From a virus (Duplodnaviria; Heunggongvirae; Uroviricota; Caudoviricetes): a stretch of 11,099 nucleotides of DNA. The translations under genes and the position numbers were made by a program. Where the stretch lies: positions 1 through 11,099 of the IMG/VR virus record IMGVR_UViG_2541047953_000001; one strand, given 5' to 3'. Below, piece after piece: positions 1 through 7,484 of the stretch (positions are counted from its first letter, which is position 1; each line of letters starts with the position of its first letter). The notes below the pieces were generated by a model, which was given only the letters and a program-made list of their open reading frames with translations, did not search any database and had not been told where the DNA came from.

Positions 1-552
1 ATGTACAAACACCCATTTGTGATGCTTGCCTATTTGATCACGCAACACTTTACAGGCGGTAAAGGCGTTTACCCGAATCAGGTAAACACAAAAGACAAAC
101 TAACAAAAGACAATATAAAACCTTTTTCGTCCGAGAATTCTGGCGAATCCTCTGACCAACCAGAAAACGATCTTCCTGTGGTGAAACCAGATGCTGCAAT
201 TCAGAGCGGCAGCAAGTGGGGGACAGCAGAAGACCTGACCGCCGCAGAGTGGATGTTTGACATGGTGAAGACCATCGCGCCCTCAGCCAGAAAACCGAAT
301 TTTGCAGGGTGGGCTAACGATATCCGCCTGATGCGTGAACGTGACGGACGTAACCACCGCGACATGTGCGTGCTGTTCCGCTGGGCATGCCAGGACAACT
401 TCTGGTCCGGTAACGTGCTGAGTCCGGCCAAACTCCGCGACAAGTGGACCCAGCTCGAAATCAACCGAAACAAGCAACAGGCTGGCGTGACAGCCGGCAA
501 ATCAAAACTCGACCTGACGAACACTGACTGGATTTACGGGGTGGATTTATGA
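1..552 (+). CDS. Prophage hypothetical protein (nin-region), 183 aa in window; may be the 3' part of a longer gene starting upstream of the window
   Basis: Open frame from window position 1 to a TGA at 550-552 that overlaps the ATG of the next ORF (ATGA coupling). It has an acidic/Ser-rich linker followed by a conserved-looking C-terminal block ([35 protein letters not shown]...CQDNFWSGN). It sits directly upstream of the Q antiterminator, where nin-region genes lie in lambdoid phages. Family assignment is uncertain; I did not recognise it as RusA, NinE or YbcN. Confidence 0.45.
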
Positions 553-719
553 AAAACATCGCCGCACAGATGATTAACTTTGACCGTGAGCAGATGCGTC
601 GGATCGCCAACAACATGCCGGAACAGTACGACGAAAAGCCGCAGGTACCGGATACTGAAGAATTACGCCAAAACCCTGACAGGAGCAGGAGTATGAAGTC
701 AGAGATAACAATCAACTAA
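549..719 (+). CDS. Small hypothetical protein, 56 aa, translationally coupled to the upstream ORF
   Basis: ATG at 549 overlaps the upstream TGA, with a GGTGG purine-rich stretch a few nt upstream; stop TAA at 717-719. Not in the supplied ORF track, presumably below its length cut-off. No recognisable motif. Confidence 0.35.
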   Translation: MKNIAAQMINFDREQMRRIANNMPEQYDEKPQVPDTEELRQNPDRSRSMKSEITIN

Positions 720-781
720 TACTATTTTGTTGATTTTTGCTTGTAATTGGCGTTCTGGTCTGATTTTTGTGGAGTAAGTTG

Positions 782-1165
782 ATGCGTGATATTCAGATGG
801 TTCTTGAGCGTTGGGGAGCGTGGGCGGCTAATAATCATGAAGATGTGACCTGGTCGTCCATTGCCGCCGGTTTTAAGGGATTAATTACTTCAAAAGTAAA
901 ATCTCGCCCGCAATGTTGTGACGATGACGCGATGATCATTTGCGGGTGCATGGCCCGTCTGAAAAAGAACAACAGCGATTTGCACGATTTATTAGTAGAT
1001 TATTATGTAGTCGGTATGACATTCATGTCACTGGCAGGTAAGCATTGCTGCTCTGATGGTTATATCGGGAAAAGGTTACAGAAGGCTGAGGGTATAATTG
1101 AAGGGATGTTAATGGCATTAGATATCCGGTTAGAGATGGATATCGTTGTTAATAACTCTAATTAA
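782..1165 (+). CDS. quuD: Late-gene antitermination protein Q (short Q family, 127 aa)
   Basis: ATG at 782 preceded by GGAG at 771-774; the track ORF starts at an upstream TTG at 767. Cys-rich zinc-binding-like motifs ([18 protein letters not shown]). The protein matches my recollection of DLP12 QuuD ([24 protein letters not shown]...). It sits immediately upstream of the lysis region. Confidence 0.85.
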
Positions 1166-1189
1166 TATGCCAGTTGTTTACTAAAAGTT

Positions 1190-1217
1190 ATTAAAAATGG
1201 GGCGTTGCAACGCCCCC
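1190..1217 (-). terminator. Candidate intrinsic terminator (minus strand), possibly terminating the porin transcript
   Basis: Perfect 18-nt palindrome GGGGCGTTGCAACGCCCC at 1199-1216. On the minus strand it is followed by ATTTTTAATAACTTTT; on the plus strand the downstream sequence is A-rich, so it is not a plus-strand terminator. It lies about 140 nt downstream of the nmpC stop. Confidence 0.4.
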
Positions 1218-1304
1218 AAAAATAAAGGGTAATATATAACAGAAGGTTTATATAGTTAGAAGCAAGGTTGTGCTCCTAAAGGAAGTGGCTTGAGGGAGCC
1301 ACTT

Positions 1305-1346
1305 ATATGTTGGGGAGGCAAAGCCTCCCGCAACATATCTTTTTCG
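1305..1346 (+). terminator. Candidate intrinsic terminator (plus strand) downstream of Q; tR'-like
   Basis: Stem ATATGTTGGGGAGGC / GCCTCCC(G)CAACATAT with an AAA loop and one bulged base, followed by CTTTTTCG. It lies about 180 nt after the Q stop codon, comparable to the pR'-tR' leader of lambdoid phages. Confidence 0.45.
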
Positions 1347-1354
1347 TAATCAGA

Positions 1355-2452
1355 TTAGAACTGGTAAACCAGACCTACAGCAACGATGTCATCAGTGCTT
1401 ACACCGAGTGCTTTAGTGAAGTCATTTTTGTCAAGCAGGTTGATTTTGTAATCAACGAAAGTAGACATATTTTTGTTGAAGTAATAGGTTGCACCTACAT
1501 CAACATATTTGACTAAGTCCTGATCGCCCCATACTCCAAGATCCTTACCTTTAGATTGCAGGTAAGCAACGGACGGACGCAGACCGAAATCGAACTGATA
1601 TTGTGCAACAGCTTCGAAGTTTTGAGCTTTATTAGCAACGAAGTGATCAGCAAATACAGTCATATTCTGGGTTTCAGAATAGGTAGTGGCCAGGTAAATG
1701 TTGTTAGCGTCATATTTCAGACCTGCGGCCCAAACTTCTGCATTTTTACCGGAAGCAAATACTTCAGGAAGAACTTTCCCTGCATTAACTTGAGTGTCGG
1801 TACGATCAGATTTCGCATAAGTTGCACCGATACCGAATCCTTCGTATTCATAGGTAGCAGAGAAACCGAAGCCATCACCGTTACCTTCAGTGTAGTTATC
1901 GAAATCGCTACGATCGTTTTTGCCTTGGTACTGAGCAGCAAAGTTCAGACCATCAACCAGACCAAAGAAGTCGTTGTTACGATAGGTTGCAACACCAGTG
2001 GTACGACCAGTCATGAACACATCTGTTTGGGTCCAGGTATCGCCACCGAATTCTGGCAGAACGTCAGTCCACGCACCGATGTCGTATGCTACACCGTAGT
2101 TACGGCCGTAATCGATTGAGCCGTAGTCACCGAATTTCAGGCCTGCAAATGCAAGACGGGTTTTGTCTTTGGAGGAACCTTGAGATTCAGCGCGGTTGCC
2201 TTTGAATTCATATTCCCACTGACCGAAACCAGTCAGCTGATCGTTGATTTGGGTTTCACCTTTGAAGCCAAGACGGGCATAAGTAGTATCACCATCATCT
2301 GCATCATTAGAGGAGAAGTAGTGCTTAGCATTAACTTTCCCGTACAGATCCAGCTTGTTACTGTCTTTATTATAAATTTCAGCTGCCTGAGCAGACATCG
2401 CCATCAGTACTGATGCAGCTACAGCAGAAATTGCCACTGTTAATTTTTTCAT
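1355..2452 (-). CDS. nmpC: Outer-membrane general porin of the OmpC/OmpF/PhoE family (NmpC/OmpD-like), 365 aa, apparently intact
   Basis: Signal peptide [23 protein letters not shown] then AEIYNKD; Gly/Tyr/Asp/Asn-rich beta-barrel composition; C-terminal ...VGLVYQF with the terminal Phe typical of porins. It occupies the Q-to-holin interval, as nmpC does in DLP12. There is no IS interruption in this window. Confidence 0.9.
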
Positions 2453-2880
2453 CGTGAGCCCTTTTTTTTGAACTATTATTAAAAAATGATGTCACTGCGC
2501 GATAAATATTCATCTAATCAATGTGATTATTTCAAGATGTAAGTTTTGGTTTCTCGTTTGATTTGTGAAGTAGATCTCTATTTTTATCTGAACTTTTTTC
2601 TATCGAATCCTATTTATAGCTCTTGGCTGAATAAAAATAAATCTATTAGCCAATTTATATTAACGGCTGTTATTTATAAGTGCTCTATAATTTGAAGGTT
2701 CAATTTAAATCGGCTAAAAATAACACTGGAAATTATTTGTTGGTTATTTGTTGAGATTTGCTTATGTATTTGTAGTGGTGTTTTCAATACTCGGTAGCAT
2801 TCTCGCAAATATCATTTAGTGGTTTACGTACGTAAAAAATTGGTTATGCTGTTAAGAGTGGTTACTTCGTCACACAGCTT

Positions 2881-2913
2881 AAACCCGCCGTCGAGCGGGT
2901 TTTTCCATTTTTT
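2881..2913 (+). terminator. Candidate intrinsic terminator (plus strand) about 110 bp upstream of the holin start
   Basis: Stem AAACCCGC / GCGGGTTT with loop CGTCGA, followed by TTTCCATTTTTT. On the minus strand the downstream sequence is not U-rich. Confidence 0.45.
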
Positions 2914-3025
2914 GAGTCTCGATATTAGCTGATAACCCAATACCTGAGTTATTCACTGACTCCGAGTCTGTTACGTTTCGTAGTATTCCCTCAATTTACA
3001 CCCGCTTTGTCTGCGAGGTGGGGTT

Positions 3026-3241
3026 ATGAAATCCATGGATAAGTTAACAACGGGTGTCGCCTATGGCACCTCAGCAGGTAGTGCCGGGTACTGGTTTTTA
3101 CAGCTGCTAGATAAAGTCACGCCCTCACAGTGGGCGGCAATTGGAGTGCTGGGTAGCCTGGTATTTGGCCTGCTGACGTACCTGACAAACCTTTATTTCA
3201 AGATTAAAGAAGATAAGCGTAAGGCTGCGAGAGGTGAATAA
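3026..3241 (+). CDS. essD: Class II holin / pinholin of the phage 21 S type, 71 aa, with dual-start motif
   Basis: ATG at 3026 preceded by GAGGTGGGG. The N-terminus MKSMDK offers two in-frame starts (Met1 and Met4), the antiholin/holin arrangement of S21. Two transmembrane segments ([16 protein letters not shown] and [17 protein letters not shown]) and a basic C-terminus [11 protein letters not shown]. The stop TAA overlaps the endolysin ATG (TAATG). Confidence 0.85.
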
Positions 3242-3738
3242 TGTCGCCATCATTACGCAAGGCTGTAGCAGCTGCTATTGGTGGTGGGGCTGTTGCCATA
3301 GCGTCTGTGCTCATCACTGGTCCGAGTGGTGACGATGGTCTGGAAGGTGTCAGCTACATACCATATAAAGATATTGTTGGTGTATGGACTGTATGTCACG
3401 GGCATACAGGAAAAGACATCATGCTCGGTAAAACGTATACCAAAGCAGAATGCAAAGCACTCTTGAATAAAGACCTTGCCACTGTCGCCAGACAAATTAA
3501 CCCGTACATCAAAGTCGATATACCGGAAACAACGCGCGGCGCTCTTTACTCATTCGTTTACAACGTGGGTGCTGGCAATTTCAGAACATCGACGCTTCTT
3601 CGCAAAATAAACCAGGGCGATATCAAAGGCGCATGTGATCAGCTACGTCGCTGGACATATGCTGGCGGTAAGCAATGGAAAGGTCTCATGACTCGTCGTG
3701 AGATTGAGCGTGAAATCTGTTTGTGGGGTCAGCAATGA
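3241..3738 (+). CDS. rrrD: SAR endolysin, T4-lysozyme-like muramidase (R21 type), 165 aa
   Basis: The N-terminal Gly/Ala-rich weakly hydrophobic segment ([20 protein letters not shown]) is a signal-anchor-release domain. It is followed by a lysozyme catalytic region with E, D and T within [23 protein letters not shown]. The protein matches my recollection of phage 21 R / DLP12 RrrD. Confidence 0.9.
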
Positions 3739-4196
3739 ACAGAGTAACCGCGATTATCTCCGCTCTGGTTATCTGCATCATCGTCTGCCTGTCATGGGCT
3801 GTTAATCATTACCGTGATAACGCCATTACCTACAAAGCCCAGCGCGACAAAAATGTCAGAGAACTGAAGCTGGCGAACGCGGCAATTACTGACATGCAGA
3901 TGCGTCAGCGTGATGTTGCTGCGCTCGATGCAAAATACACGAAGGAGTTAGCTGATGCGAAAGCTGAAAATGATGCTCTGCGTGATGATGTTGCCGCTGG
4001 TCGTCGTCGGTTGCACATCAAAGCAGTCTGTCAGTCAGTGCGTGAAGCCACCACCGCCTCCGGCGTGGATAATGCAGCCTCCCCCCGACTGGCAGACACC
4101 GCTGAACGGGATTATTTCACCCTCAGAGAGAGGCTGATCACTATGCAAAAACAACTGGAAGGAACCCAGAAGTATATTAATGAGCAGTGCAGATAG
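3735..4196 (+). CDS. rzpD: Inner-membrane spanin Rz (i-spanin), lambda type, 153 aa
   Basis: ATG at 3735 overlaps the endolysin TGA (ATGA); the track ORF begins at an upstream GTG at 3723. N-terminal transmembrane helix ([16 protein letters not shown]) followed by a charged coiled-coil-like periplasmic domain. Nearly identical to lambda Rz as I recall it. Confidence 0.85.
3955..4137 (+). CDS. rzoD: Outer-membrane lipoprotein spanin Rz1 (o-spanin), 60 aa, embedded in the +1 frame of Rz
   Basis: Signal peptide with lipobox LVVVGC, then a proline-rich mature region ([15 protein letters not shown]). It lies wholly inside the Rz gene in a different frame, the classic Rz/Rz1 architecture. Confidence 0.8.
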
Positions 4197-4227
4197 AGTT
4201 GCCCATATCGATGGGCAACTCATGCAA

Positions 4228-4521
4228 TTATTGTGAGCAATACACACGCGCTTCCAGCGGAGTATAAATGCCTAAAGTAATAAAACCGAGCAATCCATTT
4301 ACGAATGTTTGCTGGGTTTCTGTTTTAACAACATTTTCTGCGCCGCCACAAATTTTGGCTGCATCGACAGTTTTCTTCTGCCCAATTCCAGAAACGAAGA
4401 AATGATGAGTGATGGTTTCCTTTGGTGCTACTGCTGCCGGTTTGTTTTGAACAGTAAACGTCTGTTGAGCACATCCTGTAATAAGCAGGGCCAGCGCAGT
4501 AGCGAGTAGCATTTTTTTCAT
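4228..4521 (-). CDS. borD: Bor lipoprotein (Iss/Bor serum-resistance family), 97 aa
   Basis: Signal peptide and lipobox (LLITGC). It is on the opposite strand immediately after Rz, the lambda bor position. Sequence matches my recollection of Bor. Confidence 0.85.
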   Translation of the reverse strand: MKKMLLATALALLITGCAQQTFTVQNKPAAVAPKETITHHFFVSGIGQKKTVDAAKICGGAENVVKTETQQTFVNGLLGFITLGIYTPLEARVYCSQ

Positions 4522-4811
4522 GGTGTTATTCCCGATGCTTTTTGAAGTTCGCAGAATCGTATGTGTAGAAAATTAAACAAACCCTAAACAATGAGTTGAA
4601 ATTTCATATTGTTAATATTTATTAATGTATGTCAGGTGCGATGAATCGTCATTGTATTCCCGGATTAACTATGTCCACAGCCCTGACGGGGAACTTCTCT
4701 GCGGGAGTGTCCGGGAATAATTAAAAACGATGCACACAGGGTTTAGCGCGTACACGTATTGCATTATGCCAACGCCCCGGTGCTGACACGGAAGAAACCG
4801 GACGTTATGAT

Positions 4812-5222
4812 TTAGCGTGGAAAGATTTGTGTAGTGTTCTGAATGCTCTCAGTAAATAGTAATGAATTATCAAAGGTATAGTAATATCTTTTATGTTCAT
4901 GGATATTTGTAACCCATCGGAAAACTCCTGCTTTAGCAAGATTTTCCCTGTATTGCTGAAATGTGATTTCTCTTGATTTCAACCTATCATAGGACGTTTC
5001 TATAAGATGCGTGTTTCTTGAGAATTTAACATTTACAACCTTTTTAAGTCCTTTTATTAACACAGTGTTATCGTTTTCTAACACGATGTGAATATTATCT
5101 GTGGCTAGATAGTAAATATAATGTGAGACGTTGTGACGTTTTAGTTCAGAATAAAACAATTCACAGTTTAAATCTTTTCGCACTTGATCGAATATTTCTT
5201 TAAAAATGGCAACCTGAGCCAT
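4812..5222 (-). CDS. ybcV: DUF1398-type prophage moron protein (YbcV-like), 136 aa from the Met with a strong RBS
   Basis: The minus-strand ORF is open to 5345 (177 aa) but its first codon is GTG with no RBS. The ATG at 5222-5220 is preceded by GGAAGG at about 8 nt spacing and gives 136 aa, matching my recollection of the YbcV length. The gene is visibly AT-rich relative to its flanks. Confidence 0.6.
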
Positions 5223-5507
5223 TGGTAAAACCTTCCATGTGATACGAGGGCGCGTAGTTTGCATTATCGTTTTTATCGTTTCAATCTGGTCTGACCTCTT
5301 TGTGTTTTGTTGATGATTTATGTCAAATATTAGGAATGTTTTCACTTAATAGTATTGGTTGCGTAACAAAGTGCGGTCCTGCTGGCATTCTGGAGGGAAA
5401 TACAACCGACAGATGTATGTAAGGCCAACGTGCTCAAATCTTCATACAGAAAGATTTGAAGTAATATTTTAACCGCTAGATGAAGAGCAAGCGCATGGAG
5501 CGACAAA

Positions 5508-5714
5508 ATGAATAAAGAACAATCTGCTGATGATCCCTCCGTGGATCTGATTCGTGTAAAAAATATGCTTAATAGCACCATTTCTATGAGTTACCCTGAT
5601 GTTGTAATTGCATGTATAGAACATAAGGTGTCTCTGGAAGCATTCAGAGCAATTGAGGCAGCGTTGGTGAAGCACGATAATAATATGAAGGATTATTCCC
5701 TGGTGGTTGACTGA
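5508..5714 (+). CDS. ybcW: Small prophage protein (YbcW-like), 68 aa
   Basis: ATG at 5508 with GGAG about 9 nt upstream. Its position and length correspond to the small ORF near the right end of lambda and to DLP12 ybcW. No recognisable motif. Confidence 0.6.
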
Positions 5715-5878
5715 TCACCATAACTGCTAATCATTCAAACTATTTAGCCTGTGACAGAGCCAACACGCAGTCTGTCACTGTCAGGAAAGTGGTAAAACTG
5801 CAACTCAATTACTGCAATGCCCTCGTAATTAAGTGAATTTACAATATCGTCCTGTTCGGAGGGAAGAACGCGGGATGT

Positions 5879-6073
5879 TCATTCTTCATCACTTTTAATT
5901 GATGTATATGCTCTCTTTTCTGACGTTAGTCTCCGACGGCAGGCTTCAATGACCCAGGCTGAGAAATTCCCGGACCCTTTTTGCTCAAGAGCGATGTTAA
6001 TTTGTTCAATCATTTGGTTAGGAAAGCGGATGTTGCGGGTTGTTGTTCTGCGGGTTCTGTTCTTCGTTGACAT
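5879..6073 (-). CDS. ylcI: Small basic protein (YlcI-like, DUF3950), 64 aa, possible ribbon-helix-helix DNA binder
   Basis: Minus-strand ORF ending just before cos. The N-terminus is Arg/Thr-rich and is followed by RNIRFPNQMIEQINIALEQ, which has the strand-helix pattern of Arc/MetJ/CopG-type RHH proteins. The surrounding DNA matches my recollection of the lambda right end. Confidence 0.6.
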   Translation of the reverse strand: MSTKNRTRRTTTRNIRFPNQMIEQINIALEQKGSGNFSAWVIEACRRRLTSEKRAYTSIKSDEE

Positions 6074-6244
6074 GAGGTTGCCCCGTATTCAGTGTCGCTG
6101 ATTTGTATTGTCTGAAGTTGTTTTTACGTTAAGTTGATGCAGATCAATTAATACGATACCTGCGTCATAATTGATTATTTGACGTGGTTTGATGGCCTCC
6201 ACGCACGTTGTGATATGTAGATGATAATCATTATCACTTTACGG

Positions 6245-6461
6245 GTCCTTTCCGGTGATCCGACAGGTTACGGGGCGGCGACCTCGCGGGTTTTCGCTAT
6301 TTATGAAAATTTTCCGGTTTAAGGCGTTTCCGTTCTTCTTCGTCGTAACTTAATGTTTTTATTTAAAATACCCCCTAAAAAGAAAGGAAACGACAGGTGC
6401 TGAAAACGAACTTTTGGGCCTTTGTCGTTTCCTTTCTCTGTTTTTGGCCGTGGAATGAACA
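6245..6461. other. Lambda-type cos packaging site (cosQ region, cosN with 12-nt cohesive end at 6273-6284, cosB with R sites) immediately upstream of nu1
   Basis: GATCCGACAGGTTACG|GGGCGGCGACCT|CGCGGGTTTTCGCTATTTATGAAAATTTTCCGGTTTAAGGCGTTTCCGTTCTTCTTCG... matches the joined right-end/left-end sequence of lambda as I recall it. There are a few substitutions in the cosB region, for example CGTAACTT versus lambda CATAACTT. Confidence 0.8.
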
Positions 6462-7112
6462 ATGGAAGTCAACAAAAAGCAGCTGGCTGACATTTTCGGT
6501 GCGAGTATCCGTACCATTCAGAACTGGCAGGAACAGGGAATGCCCGTTCTGCGAGGCGGTGGCAAGGGTAATGAGGTGCTTTATGACTCTGCCGCCGTTA
6601 TAAAATGGTATGCCGAAAGGGATGCTGAAATTGAGAACGAAAAGCTGCGCCGGGAGGTTGAAGAACTGCGCCAGGCCAGCGAGGCAGATCTCCAGCCAGG
6701 GACTATTGAGTACGAACGCCATCGACTTACGCGTGCGCAGGCCGACGCACAGGAACTGAAGAATGCCAGAGACTCAGCTGAAGTGGTGGAAACCGCATTC
6801 TGTACTTTCGTGCTGTCGCGGATCGCAGGTGAAATTGCCAGTATTCTCGACGGGATCCCCCTGTCGGTGCAGCGGCGTTTTCCGGAACTGGAAAACCGAC
6901 ATGTTGATTTCCTGAAACGGGATATCATCAAAGCCATGAACAAAGCAGCCGCGCTGGATGAACTGATACCCGGACCATCACGTCTGCAAACATCGACCGT
7001 CTGCGCTTTACCTTCGGTGTGCAGGCACTGGTGGAAACCACCTCAAAGGGGGACCGGAATCCGTCGGAAGTCCGCCTGCTGGTTCAGATACAGCGTAACG
7101 GTGGCTGGGTGA
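6462..7112 (+). pseudogene. nu1: Terminase small subunit Nu1, C-terminally truncated and fused out of frame to J-derived sequence
   Basis: The first ~171 codons match lambda Nu1 (MEVNKKQLADIFGASIRTIQNWQEQGMPVLRGGGKGNEV...KAMNKAAALDELIPG). After about position 6970-6975 the reading frame continues into unrelated sequence (PSRLQTSTVCALPSV...) until a TGA at 7110-7112. The terminal residues of lambda Nu1 (...LLSEYIEQSG) are missing. Confidence 0.8.
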
Positions 7113-7482
7113 CGGAAAAAGACATCACCATTAAAGGCAAAACCACCTCGCAGTATCTGGCCTCGGTGGTGGTGGATAACCTGCCGCCGCGCCCGTTCAA
7201 CATCCGGATGCGCAGGATGACGCCGGACAGCACCACAGACCAGCTGCAGAACAAAACGCTCTGGTCGTCATACACCGAAATCATCGATGTGAAACAGTGC
7301 TACCCGAACACGGCACTGGTCGGCGTGCAGGTGGACTCGGAGCAGTTCGGCAGCCAGCAGGTGAGCCGTAATTATCATCTTCGCGGGCGCATTCTGCAGG
7401 TGCCGTCGAACTATAACCCGCAGACGCGGCAATACAGCGGTATCTGGGACGGAACGTTTAAGCCGGCATACAGCAACAACCC
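6971..7482 (+). pseudogene. J: Internal fragment of tail tip/host-specificity protein J (about 170 codons), with no start and no native stop
   Basis: A different frame from nu1 encodes ...[168 protein letters not shown], which I recognise as an internal segment of lambda J. Similarity ends abruptly at about 7480 (window PCD-stop versus lambda MAWCLWD...). Confidence 0.75.
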
Positions 7483-7484
7483 AT

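Follow-up and report, generated by a model that had tools for sequence, protein, structure and literature searches.

The cos-nohD segment of DLP12-type prophage remnants is already known; it is annotated in thousands of Escherichia coli genomes, previous work in K-12 has characterised it, and it recombines with phage lambda. Here such a segment is described in the IMG/VR virus record IMGVR_UViG_2541047953_000001 (Caudoviricetes), of which positions 1 to 11,099 were analysed as one stretch of 11,099 nucleotides, called the window hereafter. By gene order and location, the element belongs to a cryptic lambdoid prophage of the DLP12 family, about 12 kb long and located at the E. coli tRNA gene argU, of which it forms the cos-nohD segment. 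The explanation preferred here, to which a probability of about 0.8 is given as a whole, is that the remnant is a lineage-specific, heavily deleted form descended from a PhiR26_1- or lambda-like phage, and that its cos is competent in sequence and functionally orphaned, acting as a homology arm and as a break or end point for exchange with phages and occasionally as a dead-end start of packaging.

Among the described systems, DLP12 (qsr') of K-12 was found to share the site (argU, ompT), the gene order and the lambda-type cos with the window, and the two are 97.6% identical over 5.5 kb. K-12 DLP12 keeps a full-length nohD and 309 bp of A, whereas the nu1 of the window is cut at codon 171 and joined to J. 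K-12 DLP12 also keeps intD and the early region, both of which were lost in the window lineage, whereas its nmpC is disrupted by IS5 and the nmpC-type porin gene of the window (1355-2452, minus strand, 365 amino acids) is intact. In the window the allele to the left of cos is of the lambda type and the cosB allele is of the PhiR26_1 type. The R3 site of K-12 carries a C>T change at bp 53. Lambda and K-12 DLP12 recombine at high frequency across their shared homology, and 10 of the 19 sequenced junctions were located right at cos (De Paepe et al., PMC3945230). The recombinants with DLP12 lysis genes or nu1 were viable, DLP12 nu1 being functional in lambda, and the hot spot was attributed to double-strand breaks at cos, the nu1 side being protected by bound terminase (PMC3945230).

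The flanks of the remnant were read from a contig (L008, GCA_030007545.1) that is 99.9% identical to the entire window. Upstream it contains the sfm fimbrial genes and fimZ, followed by the presence of tRNA-Arg(tct) 360 bp before the remnant with no integrase between, and downstream of the remnant it contains ompT, envY, ybcH and nfrA. The remnant is thus placed between argU (the tRNA-Arg(tct) after fimZ) and ompT-envY, as in the DLP12 family, and the family order quuD-nmpC-essD-rrrD-rzpD-bor-ybcV-ybcW-ylcI-cos-nohD was found in the window.

The preliminary description of this stretch had named a lambda-type cos next to a truncated nu1, and this was borne out. The window from 3735 to 6973, covering Rz, bor, the right-end open reading frames (ORFs), cos and nu1, was found to be 99.1% identical to lambda (DE3 record), the differences being 26 substitutions and an indel of one base at 4723, and the part with cos and nu1 (4724-6970) aligns to lambda ungapped. 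All subsites of a lambda-type complex cos are present and intact, namely cosQ, cosN and R3 at its proper spacing, in the order R3-I1-R2-R1. The heptamer GGGTCCT, which we take to be the lambda cosQ, was found as a single exact match at 6243-6249 (plus strand), unchanged from lambda and the same in nine of nine aligned sequences; a start at 6245 had been given for the feature, and the cos is present there, but cosQ begins two bases earlier. Subsite positions were set by exact matches in the window together with the subsite coordinates of PMC9026076 (window position = 6272 + lambda bp n), the subsite definitions being those of PMC4669245 and PMC9026076. The cosQ subsite acts in packaging termination (PMC4669245). 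It is followed by the presence of cosN at 6271-6286 (plus strand), which consists of the 12-nucleotide cohesive end with 2 bp on each side, 16 bp in all by the definition of PMC9026076, and is unchanged from lambda. The cohesive end GGGCGGCGACCT occupies 6273-6284, exactly as had been claimed, and is likewise unchanged; the 25-nucleotide cosN core occurs once in the window and is identical to that of lambda, with 0 occurrences expected by chance.

In cosB, the critical TerS-binding site R3 (lambda bp 50-65) was found at 6322-6337 on the plus strand, unchanged, as is the TerS contact segment within it (lambda bp 55-63) at 6327-6335. The stretch 6285-6344 is ungapped and identical to lambda, so the interval between cosN and cosB contains no indel; this spacing matters because even a 3-bp deletion in the interval causes a severe defect (PMC9026076). 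The spacer between R3 and R2 (6338-6380, plus strand), in which the IHF site I1 is placed (PMC4669245), contains substitutions relative to lambda at 6345, 6374 and 6377. It is followed by the presence of R2 in inverted orientation (6381-6396, minus strand), unchanged, and of the accessory site R1 (6422-6437, plus strand), whose first base is T where lambda has C. R2 and R1 form an inverted repeat, and the array adjoins the TerS gene. Elsewhere in DLP12, R3 was found to vary: besides the K-12 change (L002 10698), strain 2017.18.04CC contains CG>TA at bp 53-54 (L003 8594-8595, equivalent to window 6325-6326). Both changes lie inside the 16-bp R3 and outside the contact segment at bp 55-63, and the R3 of the window is that of lambda.

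The cos region was found to differ from lambda by eight substitutions, at 6345, 6374, 6377, 6406, 6410, 6416, 6422 and 6447. The preliminary description had suggested a comparison of the cosB R sites, and relative to lambda none of the eight fell in cosQ, cosN, R3 or R2; only 6422 lies in R1, at its outermost base, and the others occupy spacers. The variant base is the PhiR26_1 allele at seven of the eight positions and is also found in a near-intact prophage of strain STEC409. The alleles at 6345 and 6374 are common to PhiR26_1 and K-12, lambda being the outlier at 6345, and the T at the first base of R1 is found in PhiR26_1 and the STEC409 prophage as well. Only 6377 G>A, 4 bp outside R2, was found to be private to this remnant lineage. 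PhiR26_1 is lambda-like, was propagated on MG1655 and has a complete genome record, its status as a working phage being taken from the GenBank record alone; a literature search on the PhiR phage series found no paper. Because seven of the eight variants are PhiR26_1 alleles, the cos of the window is, as far as its sequence tells, an ordinary allele circulating among lambda-group phages, and its cosB differences from lambda do not appear to be damage. A terminase of lambda specificity would be predicted, together with IHF, to bind and nick it. Indirect evidence for this comes from the bases shared with PhiR26_1 and from K-12, whose DLP12 cos region works in lambda recombinants (PMC3945230).

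In two sister contigs, L008 (9817) and L010 (5660), a G>A change was found at position 6 of the cohesive end (window 6278), giving GGGCGACGACCT. This allele was also found to adjoin a full-length nu1 in two IMG/VR contigs (L015 1814-1838 and L016 1289-1313). Site decay was considered for the change in L008 and L010 and was rejected as unproven, given those full-length nu1 neighbours; it may be a natural cohesive-end variant.

The nu1' gene (nohD type) was found as a fusion ORF of 216 amino acids at 6462-7112 (plus strand, ATG at 6462), with a Pfam Phage_Nu1 match over residues 1-164 (E=1.7e-100). Residues 1-171 are exactly those of PhiR26_1 Nu1 and differ from lambda by the single change L132I (five nucleotide changes), and the recognition helix (residues 17-24) and the wing (residues 31-39) are identical to lambda. 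The gene is cut after codon 171 of 181, so that the truncation amounts to only 10 codons, and 45 codons of J, read out of frame, stand in place of the last 10 residues. The junction at 6968-6973 contains about 6 bp of homology to both lambda nu1 and J, and the deletion removed about 15 kb with A, all head genes and most tail genes. The loss of A and the head genes, as earlier described, was confirmed: none was found in the window, and none in the 10 kb that flank it on each side in the near-identical contig. By exact-protein look-up the fusion protein was found on five other contigs with the same junction, and the exact nu1::J junction was found neither in GTDB species-representative genomes nor among complete E. 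coli genomes. Compared with lambda, the window thus shares all cos subsites with their order, orientation and spacing, as well as the Nu1 recognition helix and wing, whereas it has eight substitutions (in spacers and at the R1 edge) and lacks the A gene, so that no cognate terminase is encoded.

For packaging, lambda-type terminases require cosN and cosB to start and a downstream cosQ and cosN to finish (PMC4669245). Terminases of the cos type make the terminal cut only at a second cos, and a tail cannot join a head from which uncut DNA protrudes; generalized and lateral transduction are accordingly considered impossible for lambda and other cos phages (PMC6687093; PMC8575938). Whereas the cos of lambda is repeated along a concatemer, that of the window is a single chromosomal copy. 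A second cos was found neither elsewhere in the 17.6-kb locus L003 nor in the span 4.5-54 kb downstream in the comparable complete chromosome AP027850.1, which covers ompT, nfrAB and cus and reaches into the enterobactin genes. A cosmid-like unit would have two cos sites in the same orientation roughly 38-51 kb apart, or a replicon that makes multimers; no such pair was found in L003 and AP027850.1, and the remnant has no such replicon. Lateral transduction depends on a headful, pac-type terminase and in situ replication; the site here is of the cos type and replication functions are lacking.

The replication module was found to be non-functional, consisting of the C-terminal half of an O-like initiator (1-552, plus strand; phrog_277 profile positions 146-317 of 318) followed by the presence of the first 36 or so residues of a P-like loader (549-719, plus strand; phrog_109 positions 1-36 of 236). 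Integrase, excisionase, immunity region and origin were all absent from the remnant. Because there is no integrase and only fragments of O and P, excision and concatemers are not available to it, whereas cosmids and cos-type phage-inducible chromosomal islands (PICIs) escape the need for a second cos through multimers or concatemers.

Packaging from a single chromosomal cos, in a fixed orientation and into adjacent host DNA, was reportedly described by Sternberg and Weisberg in 1975. Excision-defective lambda prophages gave immature particles (Sternberg and Weisberg 1975, at least as cited in PMC8008629). So far as that citation describes their system, it resembles the window in its single chromosomal cos, packaging into host DNA and immature particles, whereas its prophage supplies terminase and heads and is amplified in situ, and the remnant needs a helper and is single-copy. 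By analogy, a packaging start at the cos of the window would be expected to be a dead end, because lambda-type terminases need a second cos and only one is present. In the sequence of events proposed here, the terminase of a helper phage and IHF would assemble on R3-I1-R2 and nick cosN; packaging would run rightward through nu1', ompT and beyond; and established lambda biology suggests that the outcome would be a filled head with uncut protruding DNA to which no tail could be joined. Initiation is plausible and productive packaging is not, and the remnant is neither a mobilisable island nor a packaging unit. Of the helper-dependent packaging suggested earlier for this locus, recognition and nicking can accordingly be kept as predictions from the unchanged subsites and spacing, but not the mobilisation of neighbouring genes from a single cos.

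That idea is not new, as it was proposed in 2009 for Sp4 of O157 Sakai, in which nu1 is disrupted and the cos matches that of its potential helper exactly; Sp4 was shown to be packaged, probably by the terminase of Sp14 (PMC2669165). It is near unit length and circularises, and regional replication that starts in a neighbouring prophage amplifies it, whereas the remnant, at about 12 kb and without int and replication functions, is not such a near unit-length element. The cos PICIs (EcCICFT073 and relatives) likewise contain cosQ and a lambda-type cosN beside a TerS-like gene and use helper capsids and TerL (PMC6739421; PMC9026076). They excise, form concatemers, encode Rpp and have a cosB without the lambda R sequences, by which packaging is redirected, whereas the cosB of the remnant is of the helper's type, with R3, R2 and R1, and its cos-adjacent gene is nu1 and not rpp. 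With no integrase, no Rpp, and only a C-terminal fragment of O and a 36-residue fragment of P, the analogy to cosmids or cos-type satellites drawn in the preliminary description is not supported.

The retention of cos had been read as compatible with selection, and no sign of selection was found. Decay in the remnant was found to be by deletion only, and the block from quuD to nu1 is as intact as cos. The late-left block at 767-6073, identified from the ORF list, Pfam and K-12 gene order, contains quuD, the nmpC-type porin gene, essD, rrrD, rzpD, bor, ybcV, ybcW and ylcI, each of them at full length, and its identity to sequenced phages is 98.8-99.1%. Because the whole block is equally intact, an intact cos of 200 bp is unremarkable. 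In a census of 5,426 complete E. coli genomes with 230-bp queries, most of the segment (at least 80%) was present in 3,981 genomes for cos, 3,957 for the 5' part of nu1, 3,753 for the left flank on the ylcI side and 3,334 for a segment of A; some match to the cos segment was found in 4,591 of the genomes, at a median of two places per genome. The cos travels with its neighbours. Ten loci were also sampled with ompT as anchor, and hence blind to cos: long prophages with tail genes occupied five of them, remnants without cos occupied four, in two architectures of which one is common to three genomes, and the last was a remnant with cos whose nu1 is cut about 47 nucleotides into the gene, so that four of the five sampled remnants have no cos. 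Both cos-keeping remnants (K-12, H51, H2 and the window) and cos-lost remnants are common.

The minimal remnant shared by strains 729_xx_1_3_yolk, AVS0343 and AREA_505 (L021, L022 and L023), which come from unrelated sources, contains tRNA-Arg followed by the presence of an integrase fragment, a tail fibre assembly fragment, a SAM methyltransferase and ompT, and sfm and fimZ are absent upstream; it is probably one old deletion inherited within a phylogroup. The deletion endpoints to the right of cosB (nu1 at about nucleotides 47 and 117 and at nucleotide 513, and A at nucleotide 309) were also considered as a sign that cos is protected. This was rejected because, by our own calculation under a uniform model over a 1.2-kb span, four endpoints would all miss the 364-bp segment from ylcI to R1 with a probability of about 0.25, because other genomes keep A or more, and because others have lost cos.

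Three sister contigs, L008, L009 and L010, were found to share all three deletion junctions with the window and, outside 6197-6256, to show 1 to 8 differences from it over as much as 11 kb. The 60-bp block at 6197-6256 (L008 9736-9795, L009 9736-9795, L010 5579-5638) contains nine substitutions, the window having the lambda-type allele and the three sisters the PhiR26_1/DLP12-type allele. To the right of cosN, the window and the sisters contain one and the same cosB allele, the private 6377A included. The right boundary of the block lies between 6257 and 6344, a range that spans cosN, and the block is on the side that terminase leaves unprotected. It looks like an exchange tract ending at cosN that arose after the deletions, and it fits the role of the DLP12 cos in lambda recombination because the sisters differ by a tract that ends at cosN. 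In the mechanism proposed, about 3.2 kb of 99% homology across cos, together with breaks or ends at cosN, would promote exchange with related phages, by which phages would acquire genes of the remnant and the remnant would be overwritten in patches; cos would be intact as part of a block that is young or recently refreshed and has decayed by deletion only, not through selection on the site. A further step, which we regard as unlikely, is that the terminase of a co-resident or infecting lambda-type phage cuts the orphan cos in lineages that survive the cut, and that phage-templated repair then leaves one-sided conversion tracts ending at cosN. Cryptic cos sites would on that account be natural break-induced entry points by which dead prophages are rewritten by live phages, and they might rarely start rightward packaging into ompT-cus-ent.

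A contig of genome GCA_005395425.1 (L011, BGFO01000179.1; 3,071 bp) was found to be 100% identical to window 6361-9431, beginning just to the right of R3/I1 and ending in the tail fibre assembly remnant. The position of these breaks suggests that the genome also contains another lambdoid element, with cos-left sequence and tfa in common, which could serve as a helper and could have donated the exchange tract.

The evidence was weighed against three other explanations. That the orphan cos is a helper-dependent packaging origin, by which the cargo and ompT, cus and ent are moved in infectious particles, as in a cos-type lateral transduction or in the manner of a cosmid or satellite, and for which it is retained, gains something from the competent sequence of the site, from its orientation into ompT-envY-nfrA-cus-...-entF within one lambda headful, from the example of O157 Sp4, where a nu1-disrupted defective lambdoid prophage is packageable by a co-resident terminase (PMC2669165), and from the contig break at 6361 in GCA_005395425.1, which hints at a co-resident lambdoid element. 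It is nevertheless very improbable, since without a second cos there is no terminal cut, and no such site was found in the window, in L003 or downstream in AP027850.1, and since without int, xis, ori and rpp neither a circle nor a concatemer is formed, whereas Sp4 excises and is amplified (PMC2669165). Remnants at the locus are also often without cos. When lambda was induced in a K-12 host, the host reads in virion DNA came 'almost exclusively' from lambda and its 25-kb flanks, and no DLP12-proximal signal was reported (PMC7667829); that host should carry the cos sites of DLP12 and Qin. The opposite explanation is that the site is an inert fossil which no terminase ever engages, its intactness and the allele patch reflecting recent ancestry and ordinary RecA-mediated exchange. 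A block identity of 98.8-99.1% to phages with complete genomes leaves too little time for point decay, and the alleles to the left and right of cos reassort freely among lambda, STEC409, PhiR26_1 and K-12, so that the joint may predate the remnant or be due to general recombination. We find this account improbable all the same, because most E. coli genomes contain a lambda-type cos and most contain lambda-type terminase genes, which makes cognate encounters likely, because recombination of K-12 with lambda is concentrated at the DLP12 cos (PMC3945230), and because the tract that differs among otherwise clonal remnants lies only on the terminase-unprotected side of cosN.

Interference with phages would be another use of the locus, if the fusion of Nu1 residues 1-171 to junk poisoned an incoming lambda-type terminase or the cos titrated it as a decoy. 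The fusion keeps the DNA-binding and oligomerisation regions but has lost the last 10 residues of the TerL-binding portion (100-181), and Rpp of the PICIs shows that TerS-like proteins can block lambda packaging (PMC6739421). The fusion ORF is moreover called as a gene and exact on five contigs, but this conservation is explained by clonality, the sister contigs being 99.8-99.9% identical overall. Expression of the fusion is hypothetical, its tail is an out-of-frame read-through, a single chromosomal cos could not deplete terminase produced in amounts that serve hundreds of phage genomes, and the nu1 ends of other lineages differ (about nucleotide 47, about nucleotide 117, or full length) and show no common design; such interference can hardly be credited.

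The orphaned, sequence-competent cos that takes part in exchange remains the preferred explanation, and several points weigh against it. The competence of the site is a prediction from its sequence, and the private 6377 G>A, 4 bp outside R2, may bear on it. The tract may be an assembly artefact, as this prophage region is a repeated one and the sister sequences come from draft, Logan and metagenome assemblies, and a boundary at cosN may have two origins, a cut chromosomal cos or an incoming linear phage chromosome that ends there. The study of lambda virion DNA was not aimed at DLP12 or other cryptic cos sites, which leaves room for rare events (PMC7667829). The ompT-anchored sample is small, and three of its four cos-less remnants share an architecture and probably represent one event.

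To the right of nu1 codon 171, the remnant was found to be shaped by three deletions with overlaps of 2-6 bp, the nu1/J junction being followed by the presence of further short-overlap junctions at 7477-7480 and 9172-9173. The resulting tail-gene patchwork (6974-9431, plus strand) contains a J' fragment of about 500 bp (up to 7480, plus strand), an internal piece of stf, the side tail fibre gene, of about 1.7 kb (7477-9173, plus strand) and the tail fibre assembly remnant. It is followed by the presence of a cargo gene for an alpha/beta hydrolase of 494 amino acids (9615-11099, minus strand), which is also found at the right end of PhiR26_1 and beside ompT in many E. coli. The gene (window 9615-11099; L013 6001-7485) is 99.8% identical to the one at the PhiR26_1 right end; it is phage cargo, and it is found beside ompT even when most of the prophage has been lost. 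In E. coli O157:H7 TR01 (L017, 1582692-1615645) the hydrolase-ompT module was found to form the right end of a long lambdoid prophage that adjoins minCDE and is not at the argU locus, so that the module travels with phages between chromosomal sites. No structured RNA was found in the window with Rfam at gathering thresholds.

In prophage remnants generally, a cos that looks intact should be taken to indicate a satellite or transduction potential only where excision, replication or a second cos accompanies it, and an intact cos is not a sign of selection when the neighbouring sequence is equally intact. The allele patch ending at cosN, if confirmed, would count as evidence at the population level that dead prophages and live phages exchange DNA in association with cos.

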